Of a stretch of 64,000 nucleotides of DNA, positions 45,066 to 64,000 are shown piece by piece; position 1 is the first letter of the stretch, and every line of letters begins with the position of its first letter. The notes under the pieces were generated by a model that was not told the origin of the DNA, made no database searches, and saw nothing but the letters and a program-made list of their open reading frames with translations. Source of the stretch: Dehalococcoidia bacterium. GTDB lineage: Bacteria > Chloroflexota > Dehalococcoidia > UBA2979. The translations under genes were made by a program, and so were the position numbers. The stretch is taken from positions 1,840,565 through 1,904,564 of the forward strand of contig CAXXDN010000002.1 of NCBI GenBank assembly GCA_963667465.2, in the 5' to 3' direction.

Positions 45066-45584
45066 TTAGCTGACGCGGCGCGTGGCGAGGCGCGCGGCGG
45101 CGAGGCCGGCGAGCGCGAGGCTGCCGAGGGCCAGCGCGAGCAGCGAGGAGCTGCCAGCGCTGCCGACGAGGCCGGCGTTGCCGGTGTCAGGCTCTGCCGG
45201 CAGATCGGGCATGGCGCCGTCGTCGGGCATGGCGGCGACGGTCAGGGTGACCTCGGAGGAGTCGCCGGCGGACCACGTTGCGGTCTGCTCGGCGGCGTCG
45301 CCGTTGACCGAGAAGCTGACGGTGGCGCCGTCCTCGGCCGAACAGTCGGCCTCGCGGACCTGGACGATCCACTCGCCAGCGGCGTTGACCGTGGTGCTGG
45401 CGCACTCGGTGCCGTCGATCCAGGCGGCGACGGTGTCGCCCTCGGCGAGGCCGGTGCCGTAGTACTGCGCCACGTCCGGGCCCTGCGCGTGTGCGGTGTG
45501 GAAGCCGAGCGCAAGCGGGCCGAGCAGCAGCGCGAGGAGCGCCGCGGCGAAGCCGAGCCTGGCCGGTCCAATCGTTCGAATCAT
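45066..45584 (-). CDS. Cassette A companion: small secreted PxTG sortase-substrate-like protein
   Basis: Signal ending AHA-Q; EPDTGNAG, hydrophobic helix, RLATRRVS tail; RBS AAGGAG. Confidence 0.85.
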   Translation of the reverse strand: MIRTIGPARLGFAAALLALLLGPLALGFHTAHAQGPDVAQYYGTGLAEGDTVAAWIDGTECASTTVNAAGEWIVQVREADCSAEDGATVSFSVNGDAAEQTATWSAGDSSEVTLTVAAMPDDGAMPDLPAEPDTGNAGLVGSAGSSSLLALALGSLALAGLAAARLATRRVS

Positions 45585-45717
45585 TCGGTTTCTCCTTGCC
45601 GGGCTTGCCGGGCTTGCTGGGGAGTGGAATACGGTTCCCCGGAACCCCGGCCGAAGCCGGGATCCCGGGGTCCGTCGCTACTCCGTTGGAGTTCTCAGAC
45701 CGGAGCGCTTGCGCGCT

Positions 45718-47577
45718 CTAGCCCTCGTCCCCCATGGCGTCCATCTCACACTCGCTGAAGAAGACAGCCGTCATGCCGAAGCCATCAGCCCACGCCGCCT
45801 CGAACGGGCTATTGGCGATCGCCACTGTAACGGTGGTGCTGTACGCGGCCGGCCACGAGCCGTCGCTCGCCTGGACCCAGTAGGTCGCACCGCCGGGGCA
45901 CTCCGCCTCGGCAGCCGCGGCGAGATCTGCGACCGAGCCGCCGCTGAACGAAGCGATCGACGGGGACAGGAAGCTGAGAGCGTCGCCGTCAGGCATGGCC
46001 GGCATGTCCGGCTCCTCCGGCATCGCCTCGCCGACGGTCAGCGTGATGATGTCCCTGATCGCGCCAGTATCGGTACCGGCGATGACGCGGAAGACAACTT
46101 GACCTTCGAGGCCGGCGGCGTAGCTGAACTTCGCCGTGCCGTTCTTGGTCTGCGCACCGTCCATCGTCGCCGCACCCTCGGCGAGGCCGTCGCCGGCGAC
46201 CTTGATCACGTTGATGTCGGTCTCGCCGACGAGGACACCCTCGTCGTCACGCACCGTCACCGTGATCGTGGTGTCGCTCAGCGGGTCGACGTACTCGGGA
46301 GCATCGCTCTCGATGCTGGCCGGCCCACCGGCGACCGTGATCTCGACCGAAGCCGTGAGCTTGGCCAGCGCGAAGTTGAGGGTGTGGATGCCGCGAGTCG
46401 CGGCCTGATCCCCGGCAGTGCCCGGATCCTCGGGCGGAGCCATCACCATGACGATGCACTGGCCATCGTCGTTCGTACCGGACGATCCGAGCGATAGAGC
46501 CGGATCGTCATCATTCACCGGTGCTTCCGTAACCGGCTCGTGCACGTCACAGGCCGGGATGACGACCTTGCCGTCCTTCTCCCGGTTGGTGCCGAAGTCG
46601 GTCGTGACCTTGTTCGACTTCTCGGCGGGACCGACGACGTCATCCTTCGCCGCCCCGGTGGGCTCCACGCCCTTGACGGGGCTGCCCCCGGAGTCGGTGA
46701 CGGTCAGGACGACCGCGACCGTGCCACCCTGCTCAACCGAGCCCTGGTCGGCCTCGGCGGACAGGTTCTTGGCGTCGCCGTAGAACGTCACGTTGACGCT
46801 CGCCGGGTCGAGGGTGGCGTGGGTGATCGTGATCGTCGCGGGGCCCTCGCGGCCACCGCCGATGAGGGTGACCGTGGCCCGACCCTCAGTGACGTCAGCC
46901 GTGGCCGGGTCGTCGACAGTGTTGGCCTGACACACCTGCGAGGGTGCGTCGCCGCCATCGCCGTCGCAGTCGAGCAGACCAAGCGTGGTGATGAAGGTGA
47001 GGGTCTCATCGACAACTTCTGCGGCCGGATCCTGGTCGTTCTTGACCGTGGCCATGATCGTGGTCTGGTCCGAATCGCCGTCGTCGTCAGCGGCCGCGAC
47101 CGTGGTCGAGGTGGGCTGGGCAGTCAGCGAAGCCGGCTGCGGCAGCGTTTCGACCTCGACGGACTGGTAGGTGACGGCCGGGCCGTCCGAAGCCAGAACG
47201 TTGGTGACCTTCAGCAGGATGAATCCATCCGCCGAGTCAGAATCGACGTCGACCACGATGAAGATGTCGCCGTCGACCTTCTCGTTCGGCGTGCTCGCCG
47301 AGCTATCGGTGTCTTCGCCAACGTCACACTTGCCGTTGTCGTTACAGACGATGCTCTGTTCGCCATTGAAGCCGAAGCTGCCGCTCGCCGTACTCAGCGC
47401 ATCGATCTCGACGCGCACGACGCCCGTACCGTCGGACGGGTTGGCGGCGATCTCGACCGTCATGCTCTTGCCCGGCTCCACCGCTTCAGCGGTCGAGGAG
47501 ACGGACAGCAGCACGGCGAGCGCTACCGCGAAGGCGGCGGCGACGGTGAGGCCGTAGGCTCCCAACTTTGTTACGTA
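45718..47577 (-). CDS. Cassette A: start-less (silent) S-layer-like surface protein
   Basis: Open frame from conserved [12 protein letters not shown] signal peptide; acidic, T/V/A/G/D-rich; no canonical in-frame start near the junction. Confidence 0.8.
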   Translation of the reverse strand, partial: YVTKLGAYGLTVAAAFAVALAVLLSVSSTAEAVEPGKSMTVEIAANPSDGTGVVRVEIDALSTASGSFGFNGEQSIVCNDNGKCDVGEDTDSSASTPNEKVDGDIFIVVDVDSDSADGFILLKVTNVLASDGPAVTYQSVEVETLPQPASLTAQPTSTTVAAADDDGDSDQTTIMATVKNDQDPAAEVVDETLTFITTLGLLDCDGDGGDAPSQVCQANTVDDPATADVTEGRATVTLIGGGREGPATITITHATLDPASVNVTFYGDAKNLSAEADQGSVEQGGTVAVVLTVTDSGGSPVKGVEPTGAAKDDVVGPAEKSNKVTTDFGTNREKDGKVVIPACDVHEPVTEAPVNDDDPALSLGSSGTNDDGQCIVMVMAPPEDPGTAGDQAATRGIHTLNFALAKLTASVEITVAGGPASIESDAPEYVDPLSDTTITVTVRDDEGVLVGETDINVIKVAGDGLAEGAATMDGAQTKNGTAKFSYAAGLEGQVVFRVIAGTDTGAIRDIITLTVGEAMPEEPDMPAMPDGDALSFLSPSIASFSGGSVADLAAAAEAECPGGATYWVQASDGSWPAAYSTTVTVAIANSPFEAAWADGFGMTAVFFSECEMDAMGDEG

Positions 47578-49405: not shown

Positions 49406-51392
49406 TACGTAACAAAGTTGGGAGCCTACGGCCTCACCGTCGCCGCCGCCTTCGCGGTAGCGCTCGCCGTGCTGCTGTCCGTCTCCACGACGCAGACCGC
49501 CGAGGCGGCTTTGGGGGACCAAGGACGGCAACGATCCTCGAGCCCGCGAACACGGCGAACCCCGGTGGACACCAAGGTCTACGTCCACCGCGGTGCCGCG
49601 GACGAGCTACGTGCACCTTCGAGATCACCTCAGGATCGACAGCACGGCGATGCGGCAAGCTTCACGCACGGGACTCGCTGCGACCGACGACGGCCAGAAG
49701 ATCATTTGTAACCCGGCCACGGCCAGACAGTGACAAGGACAGCAACCCTAACTCGATCCAGGTCGAGGTCTCAAGTCGATGCTGATTCCCCGAACGGGAA
49801 CATCATCATCGCCGTCACGACGATCAGCGGCAGCGCGAGCGCGACCACTGCTGACTTCGTGCGAGTCAAGCAGGCTCCGGTGCCGACGACGCTCACCGTC
49901 AAGCCGGTCGCGAAGACGATCGCTGCGGCGGAGGGCACGACCACGAGTCAACATCAAGCTGACCGACGAGGAACGACGCGGGCATTGCCGACAACGGCCG
50001 TGAGCATCATCACGACCGGCGGTAGCCTGTCCGTCATTGGTGACGCCGATGGCGCAGACTGCACGGCAGCGCAGGTTTGCGCCTCGCAGACCAAAGCCAG
50101 CGATAACGACGATGAGAATGGCGACGAGACTGGCACGATTGTTGCCACCCTCGCAGGTATCAACCGCGCCGGACTCGCCACGATCACCGTCATCGCTGGT
50201 GACCTGACGGCCACTGCCGAGGTCGTTCTGTTCGGCCCGGTGGACCGGATCGAGGCGAGCCCCGAGCAGTGTTCGATCGAGATCGGCGGCTCCACGTTCG
50301 TCGTCGTGACCGCCTATGACTGCGGCAACAACCCGGTGTCGGGCGTTGTCGTGGATGTGGCCACCAAGTCGAACGGCTCGCAGGACATCACCGGTCCCGC
50401 CGCCAAGACGGTGCCGGTGAGTGGCGACAACGATGTCGACAAGGATGCCAACGGCAACCACGCGGTCGACAAGGGTGACATCCGCGCCTGTGGCGATGAC
50501 GCCGTAGTGGGCGACGACTCCCGCTACGGAGAATGTCGTCGAGGGTTCGCTCGGCACGGCCAATAGTGGAACCAGTGTCGCTCGGGGCACCAACCTTGAT
50601 GGCCAGTGCGTCATCGAGATCTCGGCTCCCAAGAAGGACGTGAACGACGCCGCCGCCGACGCGGCGCGTGGGACGCACAGCGTCGTCATCAATGCCCTCT
50701 CGGGCACTGCGACTGATGCTCTCGACACCTACACCCGCAACTCTGACGTGGACAAGGTGACCGTCGAGCTTCAGGTCGGTGGCCCACCGTCGAGCGTCAC
50801 GAGCGACGCTTCTGAGTACGTTGACCCGCTGAGCTCGACCAAGATCACCTACACCGTCTGGGACGACGAAGACGTCCGCGTCGGTGAAGTCGATGTGGTC
50901 ATCGACCAGATCGAGGGTGATGGGAAGATCACGGCTGGCGAGGGTACTGGCAGGACCAAGGACGGCCAGGGGTCGTTCACCTTCCGCGCTCCGCTGAACG
51001 AGGGCACCGCGGTGTTCCTCGTTACGGTCAACCCGGGCACGTCTGGCGAAATCCAGCAGCCCATCTCGGTCGTCGTCGGCGAGGCGATGCCGGAGGAGCC
51101 GGACATGCCGGCCATGCCTGACGGCGACGCTCTCAGCTTCCTGTCCCCGTCGATCGCTTCGTTCAGCGGCGGCTCGGTCGCAGATCTCGCCGCGGCTGCC
51201 GAGGCGGAGTGCCCCGGCGGTGCGACCTACTGGGTCCAGGCGAGCGACGGCTCGTGGCCGGCCGCGTACAGCACCACCGTTACAGTGGCGATCGCCAATA
51301 GCCCGTTCGAGGCGGCGTGGGCTGATGGCTTCGGCATGACGGCTGTCTTCTTCAGCGAGTGTGAGATGGACGCCATGGGGGACGAGGGCTAG
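49406..51392 (+). CDS. Cassette B: start-less S-layer-like surface protein, multiple frameshifts in this sequence
   Basis: [12 protein letters not shown] at 49406; C-terminal domain identical to cassette A. Confidence 0.75.
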
Positions 51393-51525
51393 AGCGCGCA
51401 AGCGCTCCGGTCTGAGAACTCCAACGGAGTAGCGACGGACCCCGGGATCCCGGCTTCGGCCGGGGTTCCGGGGAACCGTCTTCCACTCCCCAGCAAGCCC
51501 GGCAAGCCCGGCAAGGAGAAACCGA

Positions 51526-52050
51526 ATGATTCGAACGATTGGACCGGCCAGGCTCGGCTTCGCGGCGGCGCTCCTCGCGCTGCTGCTCGGCCCGCTTGCG
51601 CTCGGCTTCCACACCGCGCACGCGCAGGGCCCGGACACGGCCCAGTACTACGGCACCGGCCTCAGCGAGGGCGACACCGTCGCCGCCTCGATCGACGGCA
51701 CGGAGTGCGGCAGCACCACCGCCAACGCCGCTGGCGAGTGGGTCGTCCAGGTCGGCCCGGGCGACTGTTCGCCGGAGAACGGCGCCACCGTCAGCTTCTC
51801 GCTGAACGGCGACGCCGCGGCGGAGACCGCGACATGGTCCGCAGGCGACCTCTCCGAGGTCACCCTGACCGTCTCGGCCATGCCCGACGACGGCGCCATG
51901 CCCGATCTGCCGGCAGAGCCTGACACCGGCAACGCCGGACTGCTCGGCGCTGGCAGCGCTGGCAGCTCCTCGTTGCTCGCGCTGGCGCTCGGCAGCCTCG
52001 CGCTCGCCGGCCTCGCCGCCGCGCGCGTCGCCACGCGCCGCGTCAGCTAA
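51526..52050 (+). CDS. Cassette B companion PxTG protein
   Basis: Paralog of 45066-45584; EPDTGNAG plus TM plus TRRVS. Confidence 0.85.
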   Translation: MIRTIGPARLGFAAALLALLLGPLALGFHTAHAQGPDTAQYYGTGLSEGDTVAASIDGTECGSTTANAAGEWVVQVGPGDCSPENGATVSFSLNGDAAAETATWSAGDLSEVTLTVSAMPDDGAMPDLPAEPDTGNAGLLGAGSAGSSSLLALALGSLALAGLAAARVATRRVS

Positions 52051-52247
52051 CCCTCGGCCCCGTGCCGATTGCGAAGCGCCCCCGGCAACGGGGGCGCTTC
52101 TTTGTGTCCGCCATCGCCTGCCCTCGCTGGCCGCGCTGGCGCGCGGCGCCCCCTCACCCCCGCCCTCTCCCGCGAGGGGAGAGGGGGCCGGATTGTCCCT
52201 TACCCGCACCGTCTCCGGCGAGGGGAGGGAGCCGGTCCCCTCCGATC

Positions 52248-52659
52248 CCCTCTCCCCCGGCGGGAGAGGGAGCCGCAGGCGGCATCGGGGCTATCGGCTA
52301 CAATGAGAGCCTCAACTCCGGGCTTGCCGATCGGAAGATCGTATGTCTAGGTCTGCTCCAGAGCGGTCTGAATCAGAGGCCGAAGGGCGTCGGCTAAGTC
52401 CAGCAGAGATCCTTGCTCTGCCTCAGAAAGCCCGAGAGATTCTGAGTCGCAAAGCTGAAGGACCGCTTCGTCGAATGCATCGAAAAAACGCTGCCGGTCG
52501 AGGGGACCCTGGGCGGCCAGCCCAACGCTGACAGCCACCAGCAGGAGCAGCGCCTCCGTACTCATAGACCCTCCAGCCGGTCGCGCACTCTAGTCTTTCC
52601 CTGCGTCGCTATGCTACCAGCGTGTCAGCGTACGGCTGCGCCGCCCGCACCCCCGCCCT
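52248..52659. repeat. About 410-bp inverted repeat, left arm
   Basis: Reverse complement of 54251-54662. Confidence 0.85.
52347..52565 (-). CDS. 72-aa hypothetical protein, copy 1
   Basis: RBS GGAGG; identical copy at 54345-54563. Confidence 0.5.
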   Translation of the reverse strand: MSTEALLLLVAVSVGLAAQGPLDRQRFFDAFDEAVLQLCDSESLGLSEAEQGSLLDLADALRPLIQTALEQT

Positions 52660-52783
52660 CTCCCGCGAGGGGAGAGGGAGCCGGATTGTCCCTTACCCGC
52701 ACCGTCTCCGGCGAGGGGAGGGAGCCGGTCCCCCTCCGATCCCCTCTCCCGCGAGGGGAGAGACACCCCAGGGTGCTAAGGCG

Positions 52784-54007
52784 TCAAGCGGCGAGCTGTT
52801 CGCGGTCGTGGCGGTGCGCCCAGGCGGTGGCCTCGTCGTAGGGGCGACGTGCCTTCAGGCAGCCGTGGAGGTAGCCGACGAGGCGGTTGCCGAGAGCGCG
52901 CAGCGCCTGGTGGTGGAGGTCGCCCGCGGCGCGGCGGCGGTGGTAGAAGTCATGGCAGCCGGGGCTCGCCTGCAGCGAGCAGAGCGCCCAGCGGTCCACG
53001 GCGTCGGCGAGCCGGCGGTTGCGCACGAAGCGGGCGCGCACGCTGCGCTTGCGGCCCGATGCTACGGTGAGCGGCGAGGTGCCGGCGTAGTTCCTGCGGG
53101 ACTTCGCCGACTCGTAGCGTTCGGGGTCGTCCCCGAACTCGCCGAGCACCCGGGCGCCGAGCACGACACCGAGACCGGGCAGGGAACGGTAGATTGCGGC
53201 GTCCGGGTGCTGCTCAAAATGGCTCGTGAGCGCGGCCTCGAGCTCCGTAAGCTGACGGTTGATCTCGCTGATCTGCGCGACCGCCGCGCGGGTGCTCGCG
53301 GCGAACGCCCGGCTCACGGCAGGCGGCGCCTCGAGTTGCGGGGAGCGCAGCGCGTCGCGCACCGCGGCGGCGCGCCGCTCGAGGTTGCGCTGACGTCCGC
53401 CGCGGCGCAGCGCCGAGCGGATCTTCGACGTGCTCAGGCGCGCCGCCTCGCGCGGCTCGCTCGCCCGCGCCAGCACGCCCAGGGCGTCGCCGTGCGCGAG
53501 GCTGGGGAAGGCCTGCAGGGCAGCCGGGAAATACTCCCTGAGGGCGTTGCGCAGCCGGTTGGTCTGGCGCACGCGGTCCCAGATCAGCTGCTGGTGGGCG
53601 CGGGCGAGGATGCGCACCGCGGCAGCCTCGTCGCTGTCGCCGGCCAGCGGACGGTGGTTGTGGCGGTCGGTGCGCACGAGGTCGGCGAGCAGCTTCGCGT
53701 CGGCGGCGTCGGACTTGGCGCCGCCCAGGTGGTGACGCTCACGGTAGCGCGCCGCCGAGCGGGGGTTGATCGCGTAGACGCGGTAGCCGGCCGCGAGCAG
53801 GGCCGTGACCCAGGGTCCGCGGTCGGTCTCGATGCCGACCACGACCGCGCCCGGGTCTGAGGCGTGCTCGGCAACCAGTTCGTGCAGCACGGCGACGCCC
53901 GCGACGCCCTCGGGCAGCCGCCTGGCGGCGAGCCGTTCGCCGGCCTCGTTCATGAGCTGGACATCGTGGTGGTCTTCGGACCAGTCGTCACCGACGTAGA
54001 GGGTCAT
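52784..54007 (-). CDS. IS110 DEDD recombinase/transposase
   Basis: YVGDDWS, GIETD, INP, KSDAADA, SLPGLG, YAGTSPLTVASG. Confidence 0.95.
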   Translation of the reverse strand: MTLYVGDDWSEDHHDVQLMNEAGERLAARRLPEGVAGVAVLHELVAEHASDPGAVVVGIETDRGPWVTALLAAGYRVYAINPRSAARYRERHHLGGAKSDAADAKLLADLVRTDRHNHRPLAGDSDEAAAVRILARAHQQLIWDRVRQTNRLRNALREYFPAALQAFPSLAHGDALGVLARASEPREAARLSTSKIRSALRRGGRQRNLERRAAAVRDALRSPQLEAPPAVSRAFAASTRAAVAQISEINRQLTELEAALTSHFEQHPDAAIYRSLPGLGVVLGARVLGEFGDDPERYESAKSRRNYAGTSPLTVASGRKRSVRARFVRNRRLADAVDRWALCSLQASPGCHDFYHRRRAAGDLHHQALRALGNRLVGYLHGCLKARRPYDEATAWAHRHDREQLAA

Positions 54008-54250
54008 CGTGCCTCGCTTTCCTGCGCTTCGTGCTGCTGTTTGCGACCTGCCGGGCTGGTCCTGCGACGGCCTAATGGACCAGTGCTCTCGGGCACGACA
54101 CCCCAGGAGTGCTGTGGACCACCCGGACGCACCAGCCGGGGCACGGTCTCTCCCTGGAGATCGCAGTGTCTCGGGGAGGGGCAGTGCTCACCGGCCGGCC
54201 GGTCCAAGACCAGTCTCCCAGATCGCTCCAGGGTCCGGTCGAACCCCATT
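54008..54250 (-). ncRNA. Putative IS110 bridge RNA
   Basis: Contains segments matching the donor junction (CTGGGGTGTC; CCATTAG) and the target (GCCCCTC; GGGAGAG). Confidence 0.7.
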
Positions 54251-54662
54251 AGGGCGGGGGTGCGGGCGGCGCAGCCGTACGCTGACACGCTGGTAGCATA
54301 GCGACGCAGGGAAAGACTAGAGTGCGCGACCGGCTGGAGGGTCTATGAGTACGGAGGCGCTGCTCCTGCTGGTGGCTGTCAGCGTTGGGCTGGCCGCCCA
54401 GGGTCCCCTCGACCGGCAGCGTTTTTTCGATGCATTCGACGAAGCGGTCCTTCAGCTTTGCGACTCAGAATCTCTCGGGCTTTCTGAGGCAGAGCAAGGA
54501 TCTCTGCTGGACTTAGCCGACGCCCTTCGGCCTCTGATTCAGACCGCTCTGGAGCAGACCTAGACATACGATCTTCCGATCGGCAAGCCCGGAGTTGAGG
54601 CTCTCATTGTAGCCGATAGCCCCGATGCCGCCTGCGGCTCCCTCTCCCGCCGGGGGAGAGGG
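54251..54662. repeat. About 410-bp inverted repeat, right arm
   Basis: Reverse complement of 52248-52659; ends exactly at the IS110 CT core. Confidence 0.85.
54345..54563 (+). CDS. 72-aa hypothetical protein, copy 2
   Basis: Identical to 52347-52565. Confidence 0.5.
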   Translation: MSTEALLLLVAVSVGLAAQGPLDRQRFFDAFDEAVLQLCDSESLGLSEAEQGSLLDLADALRPLIQTALEQT

Positions 54663-54841
54663 AATCGGAAGGGGGTCCGCCCCCCGCCGGAGGCGAGCAT
54701 CCGGCCCCCTCTCCCCTCGCGGGAGAGGGCGGGGGTGAGGGGGCGCCGCGCGCCAGCGCGGCCAGCGAGGGCAGGCGATGGCGGACACAAAGAAGCGCCC
54801 CCGTTGCCGGGGGCGCTTCGCAATCGGCCGGTGGCCGAGGG

Positions 54842-55363
54842 TTAGCTGACGCGGCGCGTGGCGACGCGCGCGGCGGCGAGGCCGGCGAGCGCGAGGCTGC
54901 CGAGGGCCAAAGCCAGCAACGAGGTGCTGCCAGCGCTGCCGGCGCCGACCAGTCCGGCGTTGCCGGTGTCAGGCTCTGCCGGCAGATCGGGCATGGCGCC
55001 GTCGTCGGGCATGGCGGCGACGGTCAGGGTGACCTCGGAGAGGTCGCCGGCGGACCACGTCGCGGTCTCTGCCGCGGCGTCGCCGTTGACCGTGAAGCTG
55101 ACGGTGTCGCCGTTCTCCGGCGAACAGTCGTCCTGGCCGACCTGGATGCTCCACCCGTCGGCGTCGGCGGTGTCGCTGCCGCACTCCGTGCCATCGATCG
55201 AGGCAGTGACGACGTCGCCCTCGCTGAGGTTCTGGCCGTAGAACAAGGCCACGTCGGGGCCCTGCGCGTGTGCGGTGTGGGAACCGAGCGCAAGCGGGCC
55301 GAGCAGCAGCGCGAGGAGCGCCGCCGCGAAGCCGAGCCTGGCCGGTCCAATCGTTCGAATCAT
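54842..55363 (-). CDS. Cassette C companion PxTG protein
   Basis: Paralog; EPDTGNAG plus TM plus TRRVS. Confidence 0.85.
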   Translation of the reverse strand: MIRTIGPARLGFAAALLALLLGPLALGSHTAHAQGPDVALFYGQNLSEGDVVTASIDGTECGSDTADADGWSIQVGQDDCSPENGDTVSFTVNGDAAAETATWSAGDLSEVTLTVAAMPDDGAMPDLPAEPDTGNAGLVGAGSAGSTSLLALALGSLALAGLAAARVATRRVS

Positions 55364-55504
55364 TCGGTTTCTCCTTGCCGGGCTTGCTGGTTGCCGGGCT
55401 TTGCTGGGGAGTGGGAATACGGTTCCCCGGAACCCCGGCCGAGGCCGGGATTCCGGGGTCCGTGTCTACTCCTCTGGAGTCCTCAGGCTGGAGCGCTGTG
55501 CGCC

Positions 55505-57463
55505 CTAGCCTTCGCTCCCCATCGAGCCTTCGCTGTCCATGGCGTCGGCCTCACAGCTGGAGACCCAGACGAAGGTCATACCGTCGAAGCCGTCCGCGAA
55601 CGCCGTGGTGAACCCGATGATCGCGAACGCCGGAGCGGTGCTGCTCCAGAGGTGCCATTCGCCCTCGGCGTCCTGGACGGCGATCTGCGAGCCGCCGGGG
55701 CACTTAGCCGCGGCAGCCGCCGCGAGGTCATCGAGCGAGCCGCCGCTGAAGCTACCCAGGTTGCCCTGGACCGTCAGCGTGGCGTCGCCGTCAGGCATCG
55801 CCGGCTCCTCCGGCTCCTCCGGCATCGCCTCGCCGACGGTCAGCGTGATGATGTCCCTGATCGCGCCAGCACCGCTACCGGCGGTGACGCGGAAGACAAC
55901 CTGACCCTCGAGGCCGGCGATGTAGCTGAAGGTCGACGAGCCGTTAGAGGTCATCGCCCCCATCACCGTCGCCTTACCCTCTTCGAGGCCATCGCCGGCG
56001 ACCTTGACGACGTTGATCGGGGTCTCGCCGACGAGGACACCCTCGTCGTCAAGCACCGTCAGCGTGATCGTCGTGTCGCTCAGCGGGTCGACGTATTCGG
56101 GAGCATCGCTCTCGATGCTGGCCGGCCCACCGGCGACCTGAATCGTGGCCGAGGCCTTGACTGCGCTCGAGCCAGTGCCGATCTGGAAGTTGATCGTGTG
56201 CTCGCCACGAGTCGCGCTCTTGGTCGCCCCGCCCACGTCCTTCTTCGGCACAGACACGTACACGACGCACCGACCGTCGGCGTCGGTCCCTGGCCCGAAC
56301 ACATCATCGCTGGTGCCGTCGGAGGAACCGGTGTTGTCATCACCACACGCCGGGATGCTCTTCTTCGAGTCCGTGGCGTGGATGAAGTCCTTGCTGTACC
56401 CGACGCCAGCAGCGCTAGCGCCGTCGCCCGTAACTTCCGGCGTGTCCCGCTCGGTCTCGATAGGCTCGGGCTTATCGCCGGGGCCAACGACTTCCTTGGT
56501 CGCGCGCGGGGCGATTATCTGGCTCTTGACCGGGTTGCCCGCAGCGTCGGTAACGGTCAGGTCGATCCAGACGTTGCCGCCTTCATGCACCGAGTTCTGC
56601 CGCGGCACGGCTGTCAGGTTCTTGGCCGGACCGGACAGGGTGACGTCAATCGACACCGCGTCGAGGTCGCCGCTGGTGATGGTCACCGTCGCGACGCCAG
56701 CGCGACCCGATCCGTGGAGCGTGACGCGGGCATGGCCCGGAGTCTCGGTGCCGCTGCCGTCGGTTGAGACGTCGAGATTCCCAGTGACTTCCGCGCACAA
56801 CTGGCTATCGACAGTGTCGTCGTTGTCGCAGTCGAACTGGCCGTTCGTGGTCACGAACCCAACACTGACACCGTTCATCCCGATCGGCGTCGCCTGGTCG
56901 TTCAAGACCGTCGCGGTGATGGTTGTGGACTCGGCGGTGGTGCTCCCAGCGCCGGACGCGATCGTGGTCGAAGCGGCCGTGGCCTTCAACGTAGCCGGCA
57001 GCGGATCGACGACCACGGTCAAAACGTCCCTACTGACGCCACCGGTCGTCACAGAGAGGTCCGTCTGCGTGATGCGGATCAGGCCTCCCTTGGAGTCGAC
57101 ATCGATCTTGAGCGCCACCGTCACGCCAGCGTCACTCGTGTTGGTGTCACAGTGACCCGAGCCGCTGCTGGCCGTGGCCGGGTTACAAATGATCTTCTGG
57201 CCGTCGTCGGTCGCCGAGTCGTGCGTGAAGCTGCCGCTCGCCCCCGCGACGGAGGTGATCTCGAACTGCACGTAGCTCGTTGCGGCATTCTGGACGTAGA
57301 CGGTGTCCCCGGGGTTCGCCGTGTTCGCGGGCTCGAGGTCGTTGCCGTCCTTGTCCCCCAAAGCCGCCTCGGCGGTCGTCGTGGAGACGGACAGCAGCAC
57401 CGCGAGCGCTACCGCGAAGGCGGCGGCGACGGTGAGGCCGTAGGCTCCCAACTTTGTTACGTA
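55505..57463 (-). CDS. Cassette C: start-less (silent) S-layer-like surface protein, intact frame
   Basis: [12 protein letters not shown] begins at 57463, preceded by CAA GAT CAG (no start, no RBS); about 650 codons. Confidence 0.8.
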   Translation of the reverse strand, partial: YVTKLGAYGLTVAAAFAVALAVLLSVSTTTAEAALGDKDGNDLEPANTANPGDTVYVQNAATSYVQFEITSVAGASGSFTHDSATDDGQKIICNPATASSGSGHCDTNTSDAGVTVALKIDVDSKGGLIRITQTDLSVTTGGVSRDVLTVVVDPLPATLKATAASTTIASGAGSTTAESTTITATVLNDQATPIGMNGVSVGFVTTNGQFDCDNDDTVDSQLCAEVTGNLDVSTDGSGTETPGHARVTLHGSGRAGVATVTITSGDLDAVSIDVTLSGPAKNLTAVPRQNSVHEGGNVWIDLTVTDAAGNPVKSQIIAPRATKEVVGPGDKPEPIETERDTPEVTGDGASAAGVGYSKDFIHATDSKKSIPACGDDNTGSSDGTSDDVFGPGTDADGRCVVYVSVPKKDVGGATKSATRGEHTINFQIGTGSSAVKASATIQVAGGPASIESDAPEYVDPLSDTTITLTVLDDEGVLVGETPINVVKVAGDGLEEGKATVMGAMTSNGSSTFSYIAGLEGQVVFRVTAGSGAGAIRDIITLTVGEAMPEEPEEPAMPDGDATLTVQGNLGSFSGGSLDDLAAAAAAKCPGGSQIAVQDAEGEWHLWSSTAPAFAIIGFTTAFADGFDGMTFVWVSSCEADAMDSEGSMGSEG

Positions 57464-62319: not shown

Positions 62320-62839
62320 ATGATTCGAACGATTGGACCGGCCAGGCTCGGCTTCGCCGCGGCGCTTCTCGCGCTGCTGCTCGGCCCGCTTGCGCTCGGC
62401 TTCCACACCCGCGCACGCGCAGGGTCCCGACGTGGCCTCGTACTACGGCCAGAACCTCAGCGCTGGCGACATCGTCACCGCCTCGATCGATGGCACGGAG
62501 TGCGGCAGCGACACCGCCACCGCCGAGGGGTGGAGCATCCAGGTCGGCCAGGACGACTGCTCGCCTGAGAACGGCGACACCGTCAGCTTCACGGTCAACG
62601 GCGACGCCGCCGAGCAGACCGCGACGTGGTCCGCAGGCGACCTCTCCGAGGTCACCCTGACCGTCGCCGCCATGCCCGACGACGGCGCCATGCCCGATCT
62701 GCCGGCCGAGCCTGACACCGGCAACGCCGGACTGCTCGGCGCTGGCAGCGCTGGCACCTCGTTGCTCGCGCTGGCCCTCGGCAGCCTCGCGCTCGCCGGC
62801 CTCGCCGTCGCGCGCCTCGCCACGCGCCGCGTCAGCTAA
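62320..62839 (+). CDS. Cassette D companion PxTG protein (one +1 indel near 62409)
   Basis: MIRTIGPARLG start, then AHAQGPD...EPDTGNAG...TRRVS in the next frame. Confidence 0.8.
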
Positions 62840-63266: not shown

Positions 63267-64000
63267 AGACACCCCAGGGTGCTAAGGCGTCAAGCGGCGA
63301 GCTGTTCGCGGTCGTGGCGGTGCGCCCAGGCGGTGGCCTCGTCGTAGGGGCGACGTGCCTTCAGGCAGCCGTGGAGGTAGCCGACGAGGCGGTTGCCGGA
63401 GAGCGCGCAGCGCCTGGTGGTGGAGGTCGCCCGCGGCGCGGCGGCGGTGGTAGAAGTCATGGCAGCCGGGGCTCGCCTGCAGCGAGCAGAGCGCCCAGCG
63501 GTCCACGGCGTCGGCGAGCCGGCGGTTGCGCACGAAGCGGGCGCGCACGCTGCGCTTGCGGCCCGATGCTACGGTGAGCGGCGAGGTGCCGGCGTAGTTC
63601 CTGCGGGACTTCGCCGACTCGTAGCGTTCGGGGTCGTCCCCGAACTCGCCGAGCACCCGGGCGCCGAGCACGACACCGAGACCGGGCAGGGAACGGTAGA
63701 TTGCGGCGTCCGGGTGCTGCTCAAAATGGCTCGTGAGCGCGGCCTCGAGCTCCGTAAGCTGACGGTTGATCTCGCTGATTCTGCGCGACCGCCGCGCGGG
63801 TGCTCGCGGCGAACGCCCGGCTCACGGCAGGCGGCGCCTCGAGTTGCGGGGAGCGCAGCGCGTCGCGCACCGCGGCGGCGCGCCGCTCGAGGTTGCGCTG
63901 ACGTCCGCCGCGGCGCAGCGCCGAGCGGATCTTCGACGTGCTCAGAGCGCGCCGCCTCGCGCGGCTCGCTCGCCCGCGCCAGCACCGCCCAGGGCGTCGC
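63267..64000 (-). mobile_element. IS110 element, copy 2 (partial, runs off the window)
   Basis: Nearly identical to copy 1 from 52761 onward; right end GGGGTGT-CT|CTCCCGCG. Confidence 0.9.

Follow-up and report, generated by a model that had tools for sequence, protein, structure and literature searches.

The window analysed here is a stretch of 64,000 nt from a Dehalococcoidia bacterium (assembly GCA_963667465.2, contig CAXXDN010000002.1), whose genome comprises 2.97 Mb on two contigs with a G+C content of 70.7%. All coordinates are window positions. On the minus strand the window carries an insertion sequence (IS) that consists of a non-coding left end of 243 nt (54250-54008), an open reading frame for 407 amino acids (54007-52784) and a right end of 21 nt. 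Read on this strand, the element runs from 54250 (AATGG...) to 52763 (...GGGGTGT); it has no terminal inverted repeats and is bordered on either side by a CT core dinucleotide (54252-54251 and 52762-52761). The genome contains ten full copies that are nearly identical (bit scores 2699-2708 of 2708). In all ten, the left flank ...CC-CT is joined to AATGG and the right end GGGGTGT is joined to CT-C..., and the flanks take the form ...CC-CT and CT-C[T/A][C/A]CCC. The right flank reads CTCTCCC and is followed by the second arm of a hairpin in nine copies, while one copy has CTAACCC instead. An earlier note on this DNA had described the left end as an IS110 bridge RNA with directly readable target and donor guides and had predicted the circle junction ...CCTGGGGTGT-CT-AATGG, which agrees with the ends of all ten full copies. 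A left end that is longer than the right end is typical of the IS110 group and sets it apart from IS1111, according to the available text of PMC11208160. In full agreement with this assignment, the short CT core is present at both junctions, the target is not duplicated any further and insertion is site-specific in ten out of ten copies. The element is a genuine and recently active member of the IS110 group with a left-end bridge RNA aimed at a palindrome resembling repetitive extragenic palindromic (REP) sequences. We state with high confidence that the region upstream of the gene is the left non-coding end of this active element and that it encodes a bridge RNA of about 190-200 nt. The features are collected in Table 1.

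Table 1 Features of the IS110-group element and its surroundings, in the order in which they are read on the minus strand.
Feature	Position	Strand	Remarks
Whole IS element	52763..54250	-	1488 bp; identical ends in 10 full copies
Left target CCCGCC	54253..54258	-	followed by core CT 54252-54251
Non-coding left end with bridge RNA	54008..54250	-	243 nt; 20-representative alignment, consensus fold, pair counts
5' stem-loop region	54208..54242	-	consensus-fold helices 2 and 3; pairing in 89-95% of cells
Target-loop basal stem, 5' strand	54184..54198	-	helix 5; pairs with 54144-54132
Left target guide CCCTCCCC	54173..54180	-	8 nt 5' of top hairpin; register from homology, census agrees
Target-loop top hairpin (GAGA...TCTC)	54157..54172	-	helix 6
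Right target guide GGGAGAG	54148..54154	-	reverse complement of CT-CTCCC (core + right target)
Target-loop handshake dinucleotide AC	54146..54147	-	complementary to the donor's last two bases GT
Target-loop basal stem, 3' strand	54132..54144	-	helix 5
Donor-loop basal stem, 5' strand	54116..54126	-	helices 4 and 7; pairs with 54062-54051
Left donor guide CCTGGGGTGTC	54097..54107	-	same sense as last 10 bases of right end + core C
Donor-loop top hairpin (GTGC...GCAC)	54083..54096	-	helix 9; 4 pairs, never varying
Right donor guide CCATTAG	54072..54078	-	reverse complement of CT-AATGG (core + first 5 bases of left end)
Donor-loop handshake dinucleotide GC	54070..54071	-	G (54071) can pair with target C at -1
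Donor-loop basal stem, 3' strand	54051..54062	-	consensus fold
IS110-family recombinase, 407 aa	52784..54007	-	PF01548, PF02371, NF033542, fold matches
Right end with TTGACG (52787-52782)	52763..52787	-	21 nt after stop codon
Core CT + right target + rest of REP-like hairpin (CTCTCCCCTCGCGGGAGAGGGG)	52741..52762	-	flank reading
Unoccupied target copy CCCCGCCCTCTCCC	52651..52664	+	in other inverted-repeat arm; single CT, ~100 bp away
Eleventh IS copy, right part only	63269..64000	-	truncated by contig end; right flank CT-CTCCC plus hairpin

The protein encoded by the element is assigned to the IS110 family by PF01548 (6.9e-38, residues 5-161), which describes the DEDD RuvC-like N-terminal domain, by PF02371 (7.1e-11, residues 273-356) for the C-terminal Tnp domain, and by the NCBIfam model NF033542 'IS110 family RNA-guided transposase' with 185.8 bits (cut-off 140). 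Residues D8, E60, D100 and D103 are invariant across ten relatives and probably form the DEDD tetrad, an assignment that is our own reading of the motifs and not the output of a tool. Two candidate nucleophiles, S311 and S317, are likewise invariant in these ten proteins. An AlphaFold model built from the ten-sequence alignment reached a mean predicted local distance difference test score (pLDDT) of 67.7. When this model was compared with the folds in the PDB, ranks 1-10 were taken by the recombinases of the IS621 (8WT6, 8WT9) and ISCro4 (9T56) synaptic complexes (E = 4e-9 to 2e-7, template modelling (TM) scores of 0.43-0.59, 16-19% identity). Weaker fold matches were obtained for Nop5-type box C/D proteins and for TIGR-Tas, in keeping with an evolutionary link that has reportedly been published. 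The recombinase gene also overlaps the only significant Rfam match between 52500 and 54500, Ms_AS-4, a small RNA of Actinobacteria (53102-53183, plus strand, 65.1 bits, cut-off 50, E = 3e-9). It runs antisense to the most conserved stretch of the gene, the depth of contigs from public runs spikes at 53102-53183, and the match probably reflects conserved IS110 coding sequence and not a separate RNA.

For a comparative analysis of the left end, one genome per species was scanned, which yielded 245 relatives, and 79 loci were kept. Most relatives are metagenome-assembled genomes labelled Dehalococcoidia (73-92% protein identity), and a few stem from Actinomycetota (64-71%). Prior to covariation counts, we dropped nine loci shorter than 3200 bases, nine exact duplicates of left end plus right end, and L020, L026 and L082, whose left ends could not be aligned over the target loop. 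The resulting set comprises 59 rows, window included. Note that L020 and L082 retain the donor-binding loop, while only its 3' part is left in L026; these three may be truncated or rearranged elements.

The two donor guides can be recognized in the window sequence without further help. The core C is the last base of the left donor guide, and a G follows. The earlier note had already pointed to the motif CTGGGGTGTC at 54106-54097, and the match in fact extends by one base to 54107. In 20000 first-order Markov simulations of the left end, a match of at least ten bases to the right-end tip plus core occurred with P = 0.0055, while eleven bases are observed here (54107-54097). For CCATTAG, which had likewise been named as the right donor guide, P was 0.00045, and both donor motifs were found jointly in none of the 20000 simulations. 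In view of these P values, the donor matches stand on their own, far beyond chance. The GTGC...GCAC hairpin that was predicted to separate the two motifs is present at 54096-54083. Among the relatives, TGGGGTGTC of the left guide and CATTAG of the right guide are invariant in 59 of 59 rows. The same is true for the loop segment TGGGGTGTCG, while CATTAGGCC occurs in 58 of the 59, and the ends of the elements are conserved to an equal extent. Donor covariation is restricted to position -9, where guide and right end agree in 41 of 57 rows.

The consensus fold of 20 representatives starts with a 5' stem-loop, which is followed by two stem-loops with internal loops. The first internal loop is closed by a long basal stem and topped by a hairpin of four base pairs. 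The order of a target loop and then a donor loop around a CT core, as proposed in the earlier note, is thus borne out. On the consensus structure 96.2% of the cells are paired, compared with 29-50% when the partners are slid against each other, and double changes were counted in 30 cells versus 11.9 expected from shuffles, none of 500 shuffles reaching 30. The basal stem of the target loop, helix 5, contributes 14 pairs of which 98% of the cells are paired, and an A-U to U-A swap is seen in six of the 20 sequences. The four pairs of helix 6 are paired in all cells and show compensatory changes in three instances, and helix 7, which closes the donor loop, exhibits such changes in two pairs. The inner pairs of the donor loop never vary and are therefore neither supported nor refuted. 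An alternative inner stem, in which GCAC pairs with GU(C)GC, has one supporting double change (in L091) at otherwise invariant bases and clashes with two pairs of helix 7.

The situation is different for the target guides. In the simulated left ends, GGGAGAG arises with P = 0.10 and GCCCCTC, the 7-mer at 54182-54176 that had been suggested as the left guide, with P = 0.056. The 7-mers alone are not beyond chance, and the target matches thus need evidence from outside. This evidence is provided by the relatives, because their 59 rows fall into 16 target-loop types with at least eight different right targets, and the flanking host DNA changes together with the loop. Across the 16 types, the right guide matches its own flank at 76 of 80 non-core positions (permutation mean 41) and the left guide at 66 of 96 (permutation mean 42). 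When flanks were permuted among loop types, none of 20000 permutations reached the observed left or right matches. As examples, the left guide AACAACCT occurs with the left flank AACAAC-CT, and the right guide of the same type, given in target sense as CTACGT, with the right flank CT-ACGT. A second type combines CGGTTCCT and CGGTTC-CT (plus near variants) with CTTTCT and CT-TTCT. The left guide TGATCCCT is accompanied by the right guide CTTCGTG and the flank CT-TCGTG, TGACCCCT is accompanied by CTAGGCC and CT-AGGCC, and GAAGGCCT faces the left flank GAAGGC-CT. GGGAGAG at 54154-54148, for which the earlier note had claimed the role of the right target guide, is therefore retained in this role, its chance-level match being rescued by covariation.

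In most loop types, the left flank is matched by the 8 nt that immediately precede the top hairpin of the first loop on its 5' side. In the window, these 8 nt read CCCTCCCC; they are in the sense of the left target plus core, CCCGCC-CT, and match it at six of eight positions. Since this match to the usual target is imperfect, the left target guide cannot be read directly from this one sequence. The other three of the four guide assignments are right. GCCCCTC does lie where it was reported, but it is not a guide, because only five of its bases (CCCTC) match the target and because the relatives place the left target guide four bases further 3', at 54180-54173. The last base of this guide, opposite the core T, is free in the clade (T in 36, A in 18 and C in five of the 59 rows).

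Tabulation of the flanks, as had been suggested, located all ten full copies at the same CT inside the REP-like palindrome. Together with the uninterrupted copy CCCCGCCCTCTCCC, the flanks establish insertion at the CT of ...CCCGCC-CT-CTCCC... without duplication beyond the core. Written out with the core, the target is CACCCCCGCC-CT-CTCCCC, and the point of insertion lies in the 5' arm of the palindrome. The consensus of the repeat family is approximately CCCCTCACCCCCGCCCTCTCCC-loop-GGGAGAGGGGGCCGGA, as exemplified by 52651-52680 and 52741-52762 in the window. Genome-wide, CCCTCTCCC is present 206 times, and 197 of the sites are hairpin-like by a simple pattern. The same REP-like repeat flanks related elements in several other genomes. 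The central proposal of the earlier note, an RNA-guided recombinase aimed at the CCCTCTCCC palindrome of this genome, is corroborated by the family assignment, the two-loop structure, the covariation of guides with targets and the ten out of ten insertions.

All genomic sites with CT-CTCCC, 494 empty and nine occupied, were then scored on six positions of the left guide. A full match of six was found at one occupied and no empty site, five matches at seven occupied and 43 empty sites, four matches at one occupied and 57 empty sites, and three or fewer at no occupied and 394 empty sites. Thus, all nine occupied sites but only 100 of the 494 empty ones reach at least four matches (Fisher p = 8e-7), which supports the register derived from homology. 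On the other strand, the opposite arm of the palindrome, GGC[C/T]CC-CT-CTCCC, is not occupied at any of 53 sites. Among sites of the form CCCNCC, the base at -3 is G in four, C in two, T in one and A in one of the occupied sites, as compared with G in 40 and C in three of the empty ones. Bases other than G at this position are hence enriched upon occupation (four of eight versus three of 43, p = 0.008), albeit in small numbers. Position -3 is where the guide, CCCUCC-C, deviates from CCCGCC-C, the REP arm found most often. Possibly, though we consider this rather doubtful, the left target guide of this lineage is a deliberately imperfect 'hybrid' guide. If this were true, the clade would amount to a naturally occurring set of no fewer than 16 target loops, reprogrammed on a scaffold that is almost constant, and would reveal how bridge elements drift from site to site within a repeat family and at which positions the guide is strictly read.

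The relatives L018, L019, L021-L024, L063 and L089 (91-92% protein identity) carry the left guide GGCTCCCT, the L018-type guide also being written as GGCUCCCU. These elements sit in the other arm of a palindrome of the same kind, and their left flank is CCGGC[T/C]CC-CT. As judged from the aligned loops and flanks, this switch is a case of natural retargeting by the left guide alone. In three insertions, namely G000:C2:1583213 (+), L018 and L019, the right flank is CT-AACCC instead of CT-CTCCC, which amounts to two mismatches to the right target guide beside the core. The flank represents either an off-target insertion or a second variant of the repeat.

A number of observations weigh against a left-end bridge RNA of the IS621 kind. 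The recombinase shows no more than 16-19% identity to IS621, PDB searches by sequence, run with the protein as well as with a ten-sequence profile, returned neither IS621 nor any other bridge recombinase, and the Tnp domain is poorly predicted in the model (pLDDT below 50 for residues 265-329). The same sequence searches gave a match to NrdR (E = 0.24), which is weak and irrelevant. A scan of 52500-54500 against Rfam 15 with E values up to 10 gave no bridge-RNA match on the left end. The earlier note had suggested folding 54250-54008; the consensus fold of the representatives carries compensatory changes, but the fold of the single sequence is no more stable than that of shuffles (z = -0.5) and is uninformative. 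Public RNA runs were searched and none was found that contains the sequence. The guides and inner stems of the donor loop hardly vary and provide almost no evidence from covariation. With regard to the target guides, the left guide mismatches the commonest target at two of eight positions (U versus G at -3, C versus the core T). The left flank of L061/L062 matches at only three of eight positions, where a shift by one base would give five of six, and that of L064, one locus of another type, at four of eight. Also note that the sites in the census are members of a single repeat family and cannot count as independent. As for the putative promoter across the circle junction that is discussed below, its -10 motif TCTAAT lacks the usual A at the second position, and a promoter and terminator scan of the integrated copy remained empty, the scanner being blind to the junction and requiring that A.

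In principle, the sequence copies in the left end could be explained by fundamentally different functions. They could be subterminal repeats that act at the DNA level as binding sites for the transposase. Such repeats occur in many transposons, and the left end does hold a direct copy of the right-end tip plus an inverted copy of its own tip. However, the left end has two more segments that match DNA of the host beyond the element and that vary in step with this DNA among the relatives, the compensatory changes in the stems are typical of RNA, and the family is experimentally known to be RNA-guided, as reported in the accessible part of PMC11208160. We therefore regard DNA-level repeats as extremely improbable. 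It is just as hard to credit that the left end is a mere 5' untranslated leader by which the recombinase mRNA is controlled in its translation or stability. The left end is indeed located directly upstream of the ATG at 54007, a purine-rich stretch precedes this ATG, and a terminator scan detected none between left end and gene, but a leader fails to explain why the sequence is complementary to the target and to both ends of the element or why it covaries with targets. Leader and guide roles are not mutually exclusive. If the left end encodes a bridge RNA, its left target guide might still be sought in the register of the earlier note, i.e., as GCCCCUC at 54182-54176 with the core CU at 54178-54177. 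Guide and target share CCCTC in this register, and the 5' side of the loop, UGCCCCUCCCC (54183-54173), is so C-rich that more than one register can pair. It is nevertheless very unlikely to be the correct one, because no more than five bases match, a 7-mer of this kind is met by chance in 5.6% of the simulated left ends, and most of the 16 loop types place the left guide directly 5' of the top hairpin, L061/L062 being the exception. When the census was repeated in this register, seven occupied sites scored three of six and two scored four of six, while seven empty sites scored five of six, such that no enrichment resulted.

A more serious alternative concerns the extent to which the RNA determines the choice of the target. 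The site might largely be set by the REP hairpin or by the upstream sequence CCCCTCACCCC, read by the protein or as a DNA structure, with RNA pairing as only one of two layers. Nine of ten insertions reside in the 5' arm of the hairpin and most follow CCCCTCACCCC, the left guide tolerates the mismatch at -3, and only nine of about 109 well-matching sites are occupied. Furthermore, a stem-loop in the target has been reported as a second determinant for ISPpu10, as far as the available text of 10.64898/2026.03.19.712850 describes it. On the other hand, close relatives with other loops use guide-matching sites that are neither palindromic nor REP-like, as is the case for the CT-TTCT, CT-TCGTG and CT-ACGT types, and the hairpin is consequently not required in the clade. 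In addition, a change in the left guide is all that directs the L018-type elements to the opposite arm of the palindrome. We thus consider it unlikely, yet a good deal less so than the other alternatives, that the hairpin or its upstream sequence dominates, and favour the bridge RNA as the determinant of the site.

The two bases that directly follow each right guide deserve attention. According to the sections of PMC11208158 available to us, the corresponding bases of IS621 pair with the non-cognate DNA ends after strand exchange, and such handshake pairing with the cognate DNA blocks the reaction. In the clade studied here, AC is found in the target loop in 58 of 59 rows and the donor terminus is GT in 57 of 57; AC does not pair with the CC of the target. 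Position -1 of the target, which could pair with the G of the donor loop, is C in 57 of 59 rows. Since these bases are invariant, the handshake is a matter of complementarity and not of covariation. A further feature emerges when the ends are joined in a circle, which would give TTGACG, 18 nt and TCTAAT across the junction, in agreement with ten of twelve consensus bases. In 15 of 15 representatives the sequence cTTGAC stands at a constant distance from the junction, and because the stop codon lies elsewhere in two of these, the -35-like box is not kept merely as part of the stop codon. By analogy with IS621, the motif may act as a junction promoter.

The sequences themselves show the anatomy and copy number of the element, its sites of insertion, the complementarity of the guides, their covariation with targets in relatives, the conserved stems and the family of the protein. 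Transcription, binding of the RNA by the protein and the chemistry of recombination are drawn here from the IS621 literature, and on this basis the following cycle can be envisaged. Excision would yield a circle in which the right end is joined to the left end at the CT core, and the TTGACG-18-TCTAAT motif thus formed would drive transcription of the RNA and the recombinase gene. The RNA would fold into the 5' stem-loop plus the two stem-loops with internal loops, the first of which would bear the guides for the target and the second those for the donor, with CCUGGGGUGUC pairing with the terminus of the right end plus core C and CCAUUAG pairing with CT-AATGG. The dinucleotides AC and GC just 3' of the right guides would fit a handshake rule that favours strand exchange. 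A tetramer of the DEDD/Ser recombinase would then exchange strands at CT and insert the element into one arm of a REP-like palindrome.

The surroundings of the element are themselves repetitive. Together with a small REP cluster (52660-52762), the IS forms the centre of an inverted repeat with inner arms at 52237-52659 and 54251-54673, which are 423 nt long and 100% identical, and outer parts (51499-52193 with 54699-55390) that are 90-95% identical. The arms encode identical open reading frames for 72 amino acids, and more copies of the module reside in the window at 45162-46067 and 62409-62756. This arrangement suggests recent gene conversion or rearrangement. The contig, and hence the window, terminates inside the second IS copy at 63269-64000 (-), and the break at 64000 was probably caused by the IS repeat. 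Contigs assembled from four public DNA runs over 50001-57000 are short and break at repeat borders (e.g., 52761 and 54254); neither a clear empty site nor a circle junction was detected in them. A joint from 52183 to 54740 occurs in all four runs and skips 2556 bases, with three other letters in between, and a joint from 52682 to 54640 occurs in three of four. These joints are indistinguishable from paralogous copies of the surrounding repeated module, and the former could represent such a paralogous module or a variant without the IS and the inner arms.

The existence of bridge RNAs has been established since 2024, and they have been surveyed at scale (PMC11208160 and 10.64898/2026.10.21.760802, as far as the available parts of these reports go); one more example is therefore not surprising. 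Our literature search retrieved no report that deals with the element itself or with bridge RNAs from its lineage. The closest characterized counterpart is IS621 of Escherichia coli with its bridge RNA (Durrant et al. 2024, PMC11208160; Hiraizumi et al. 2024, PMC11208158; PDB 8WT6, 8WT9), to the extent that the accessible text of these papers describes it. The present element shares with IS621 the DEDD plus Tnp recombinase fold, a long left and a short right end with a CT core at both junctions, a putative promoter-like motif across the circle junction and a target of the REP type. The order of 5' stem-loop, target loop and donor loop in the RNA is also the same, as is the orientation of the guides, the left ones having the sense of the top strand and the right ones being its reverse complement (available text of PMC11208160). 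As in IS621, where it spans A123-C130, the left donor guide has the core C as its last base, and as in the wild-type system the A of the target loop is placed opposite the donor T at -1 and the G of the donor loop opposite the target C at -1 (PMC11208158, in its accessible part). Unlike in IS621, the right guides for target and donor are contiguous stretches of 7 nt each, compared with 4 nt for the target guide and a discontiguous donor guide, and the base with which the left target guide ends, facing the core T, is a C in this element and variable among relatives. The protein also differs in its length of 407 amino acids, as opposed to chains of about 305-320 residues in the solved structures, and its 16-19% identity lies beyond the reach of sequence searches. 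Moreover, the host belongs to a GC-rich lineage, its relatives being labelled Dehalococcoidia. The ISCro4 bridge recombinase (PDB 9T56) is matched as strongly as that of IS621 (E = 1e-8, TM 0.47/0.59), a comparison that concerns the protein fold only.

The whole set of IS621 rules, i.e., loop order, sense of the guides, end of the left donor guide, handshake and candidate junction promoter, thus appears to hold at 16-19% identity, although we infer this from comparison with the literature. What we find most interesting is this distance from IS621 with conserved rules, along with a left guide that matches imperfectly and a series of target loops that were reprogrammed in nature. The many empty and few occupied sites offer a clean test within one genome of which left-guide positions matter. 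The clade could supply bridge recombinases from GC-rich hosts and could serve as a benchmark for automatic guide calling, given that reading a single sequence misplaced one of the four guides. The seekRNA of IS1111 and IS110 elements, attributed to Siddiquee et al. in 2024, is reportedly an RNA from a non-coding end that selects the target. In the IS1111 group the RNA is located in the right end and subterminal inverted repeats are present, according to the accessible part of PMC11208160, whereas the element described here carries its RNA in the left end and has no such repeats. ISPpu10 of Pseudomonas putida is likewise an IS110 element and inserts into many copies of one GC-rich intergenic repeat that can form a stem-loop (10.64898/2026.03.19.712850, available text). 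In that system, the same text states, the stem-loop belongs to the 5' extension of the target and has been shown to be a second determinant, whereas in the Dehalococcoidia element the hairpin includes the point of insertion itself and its role is putative.

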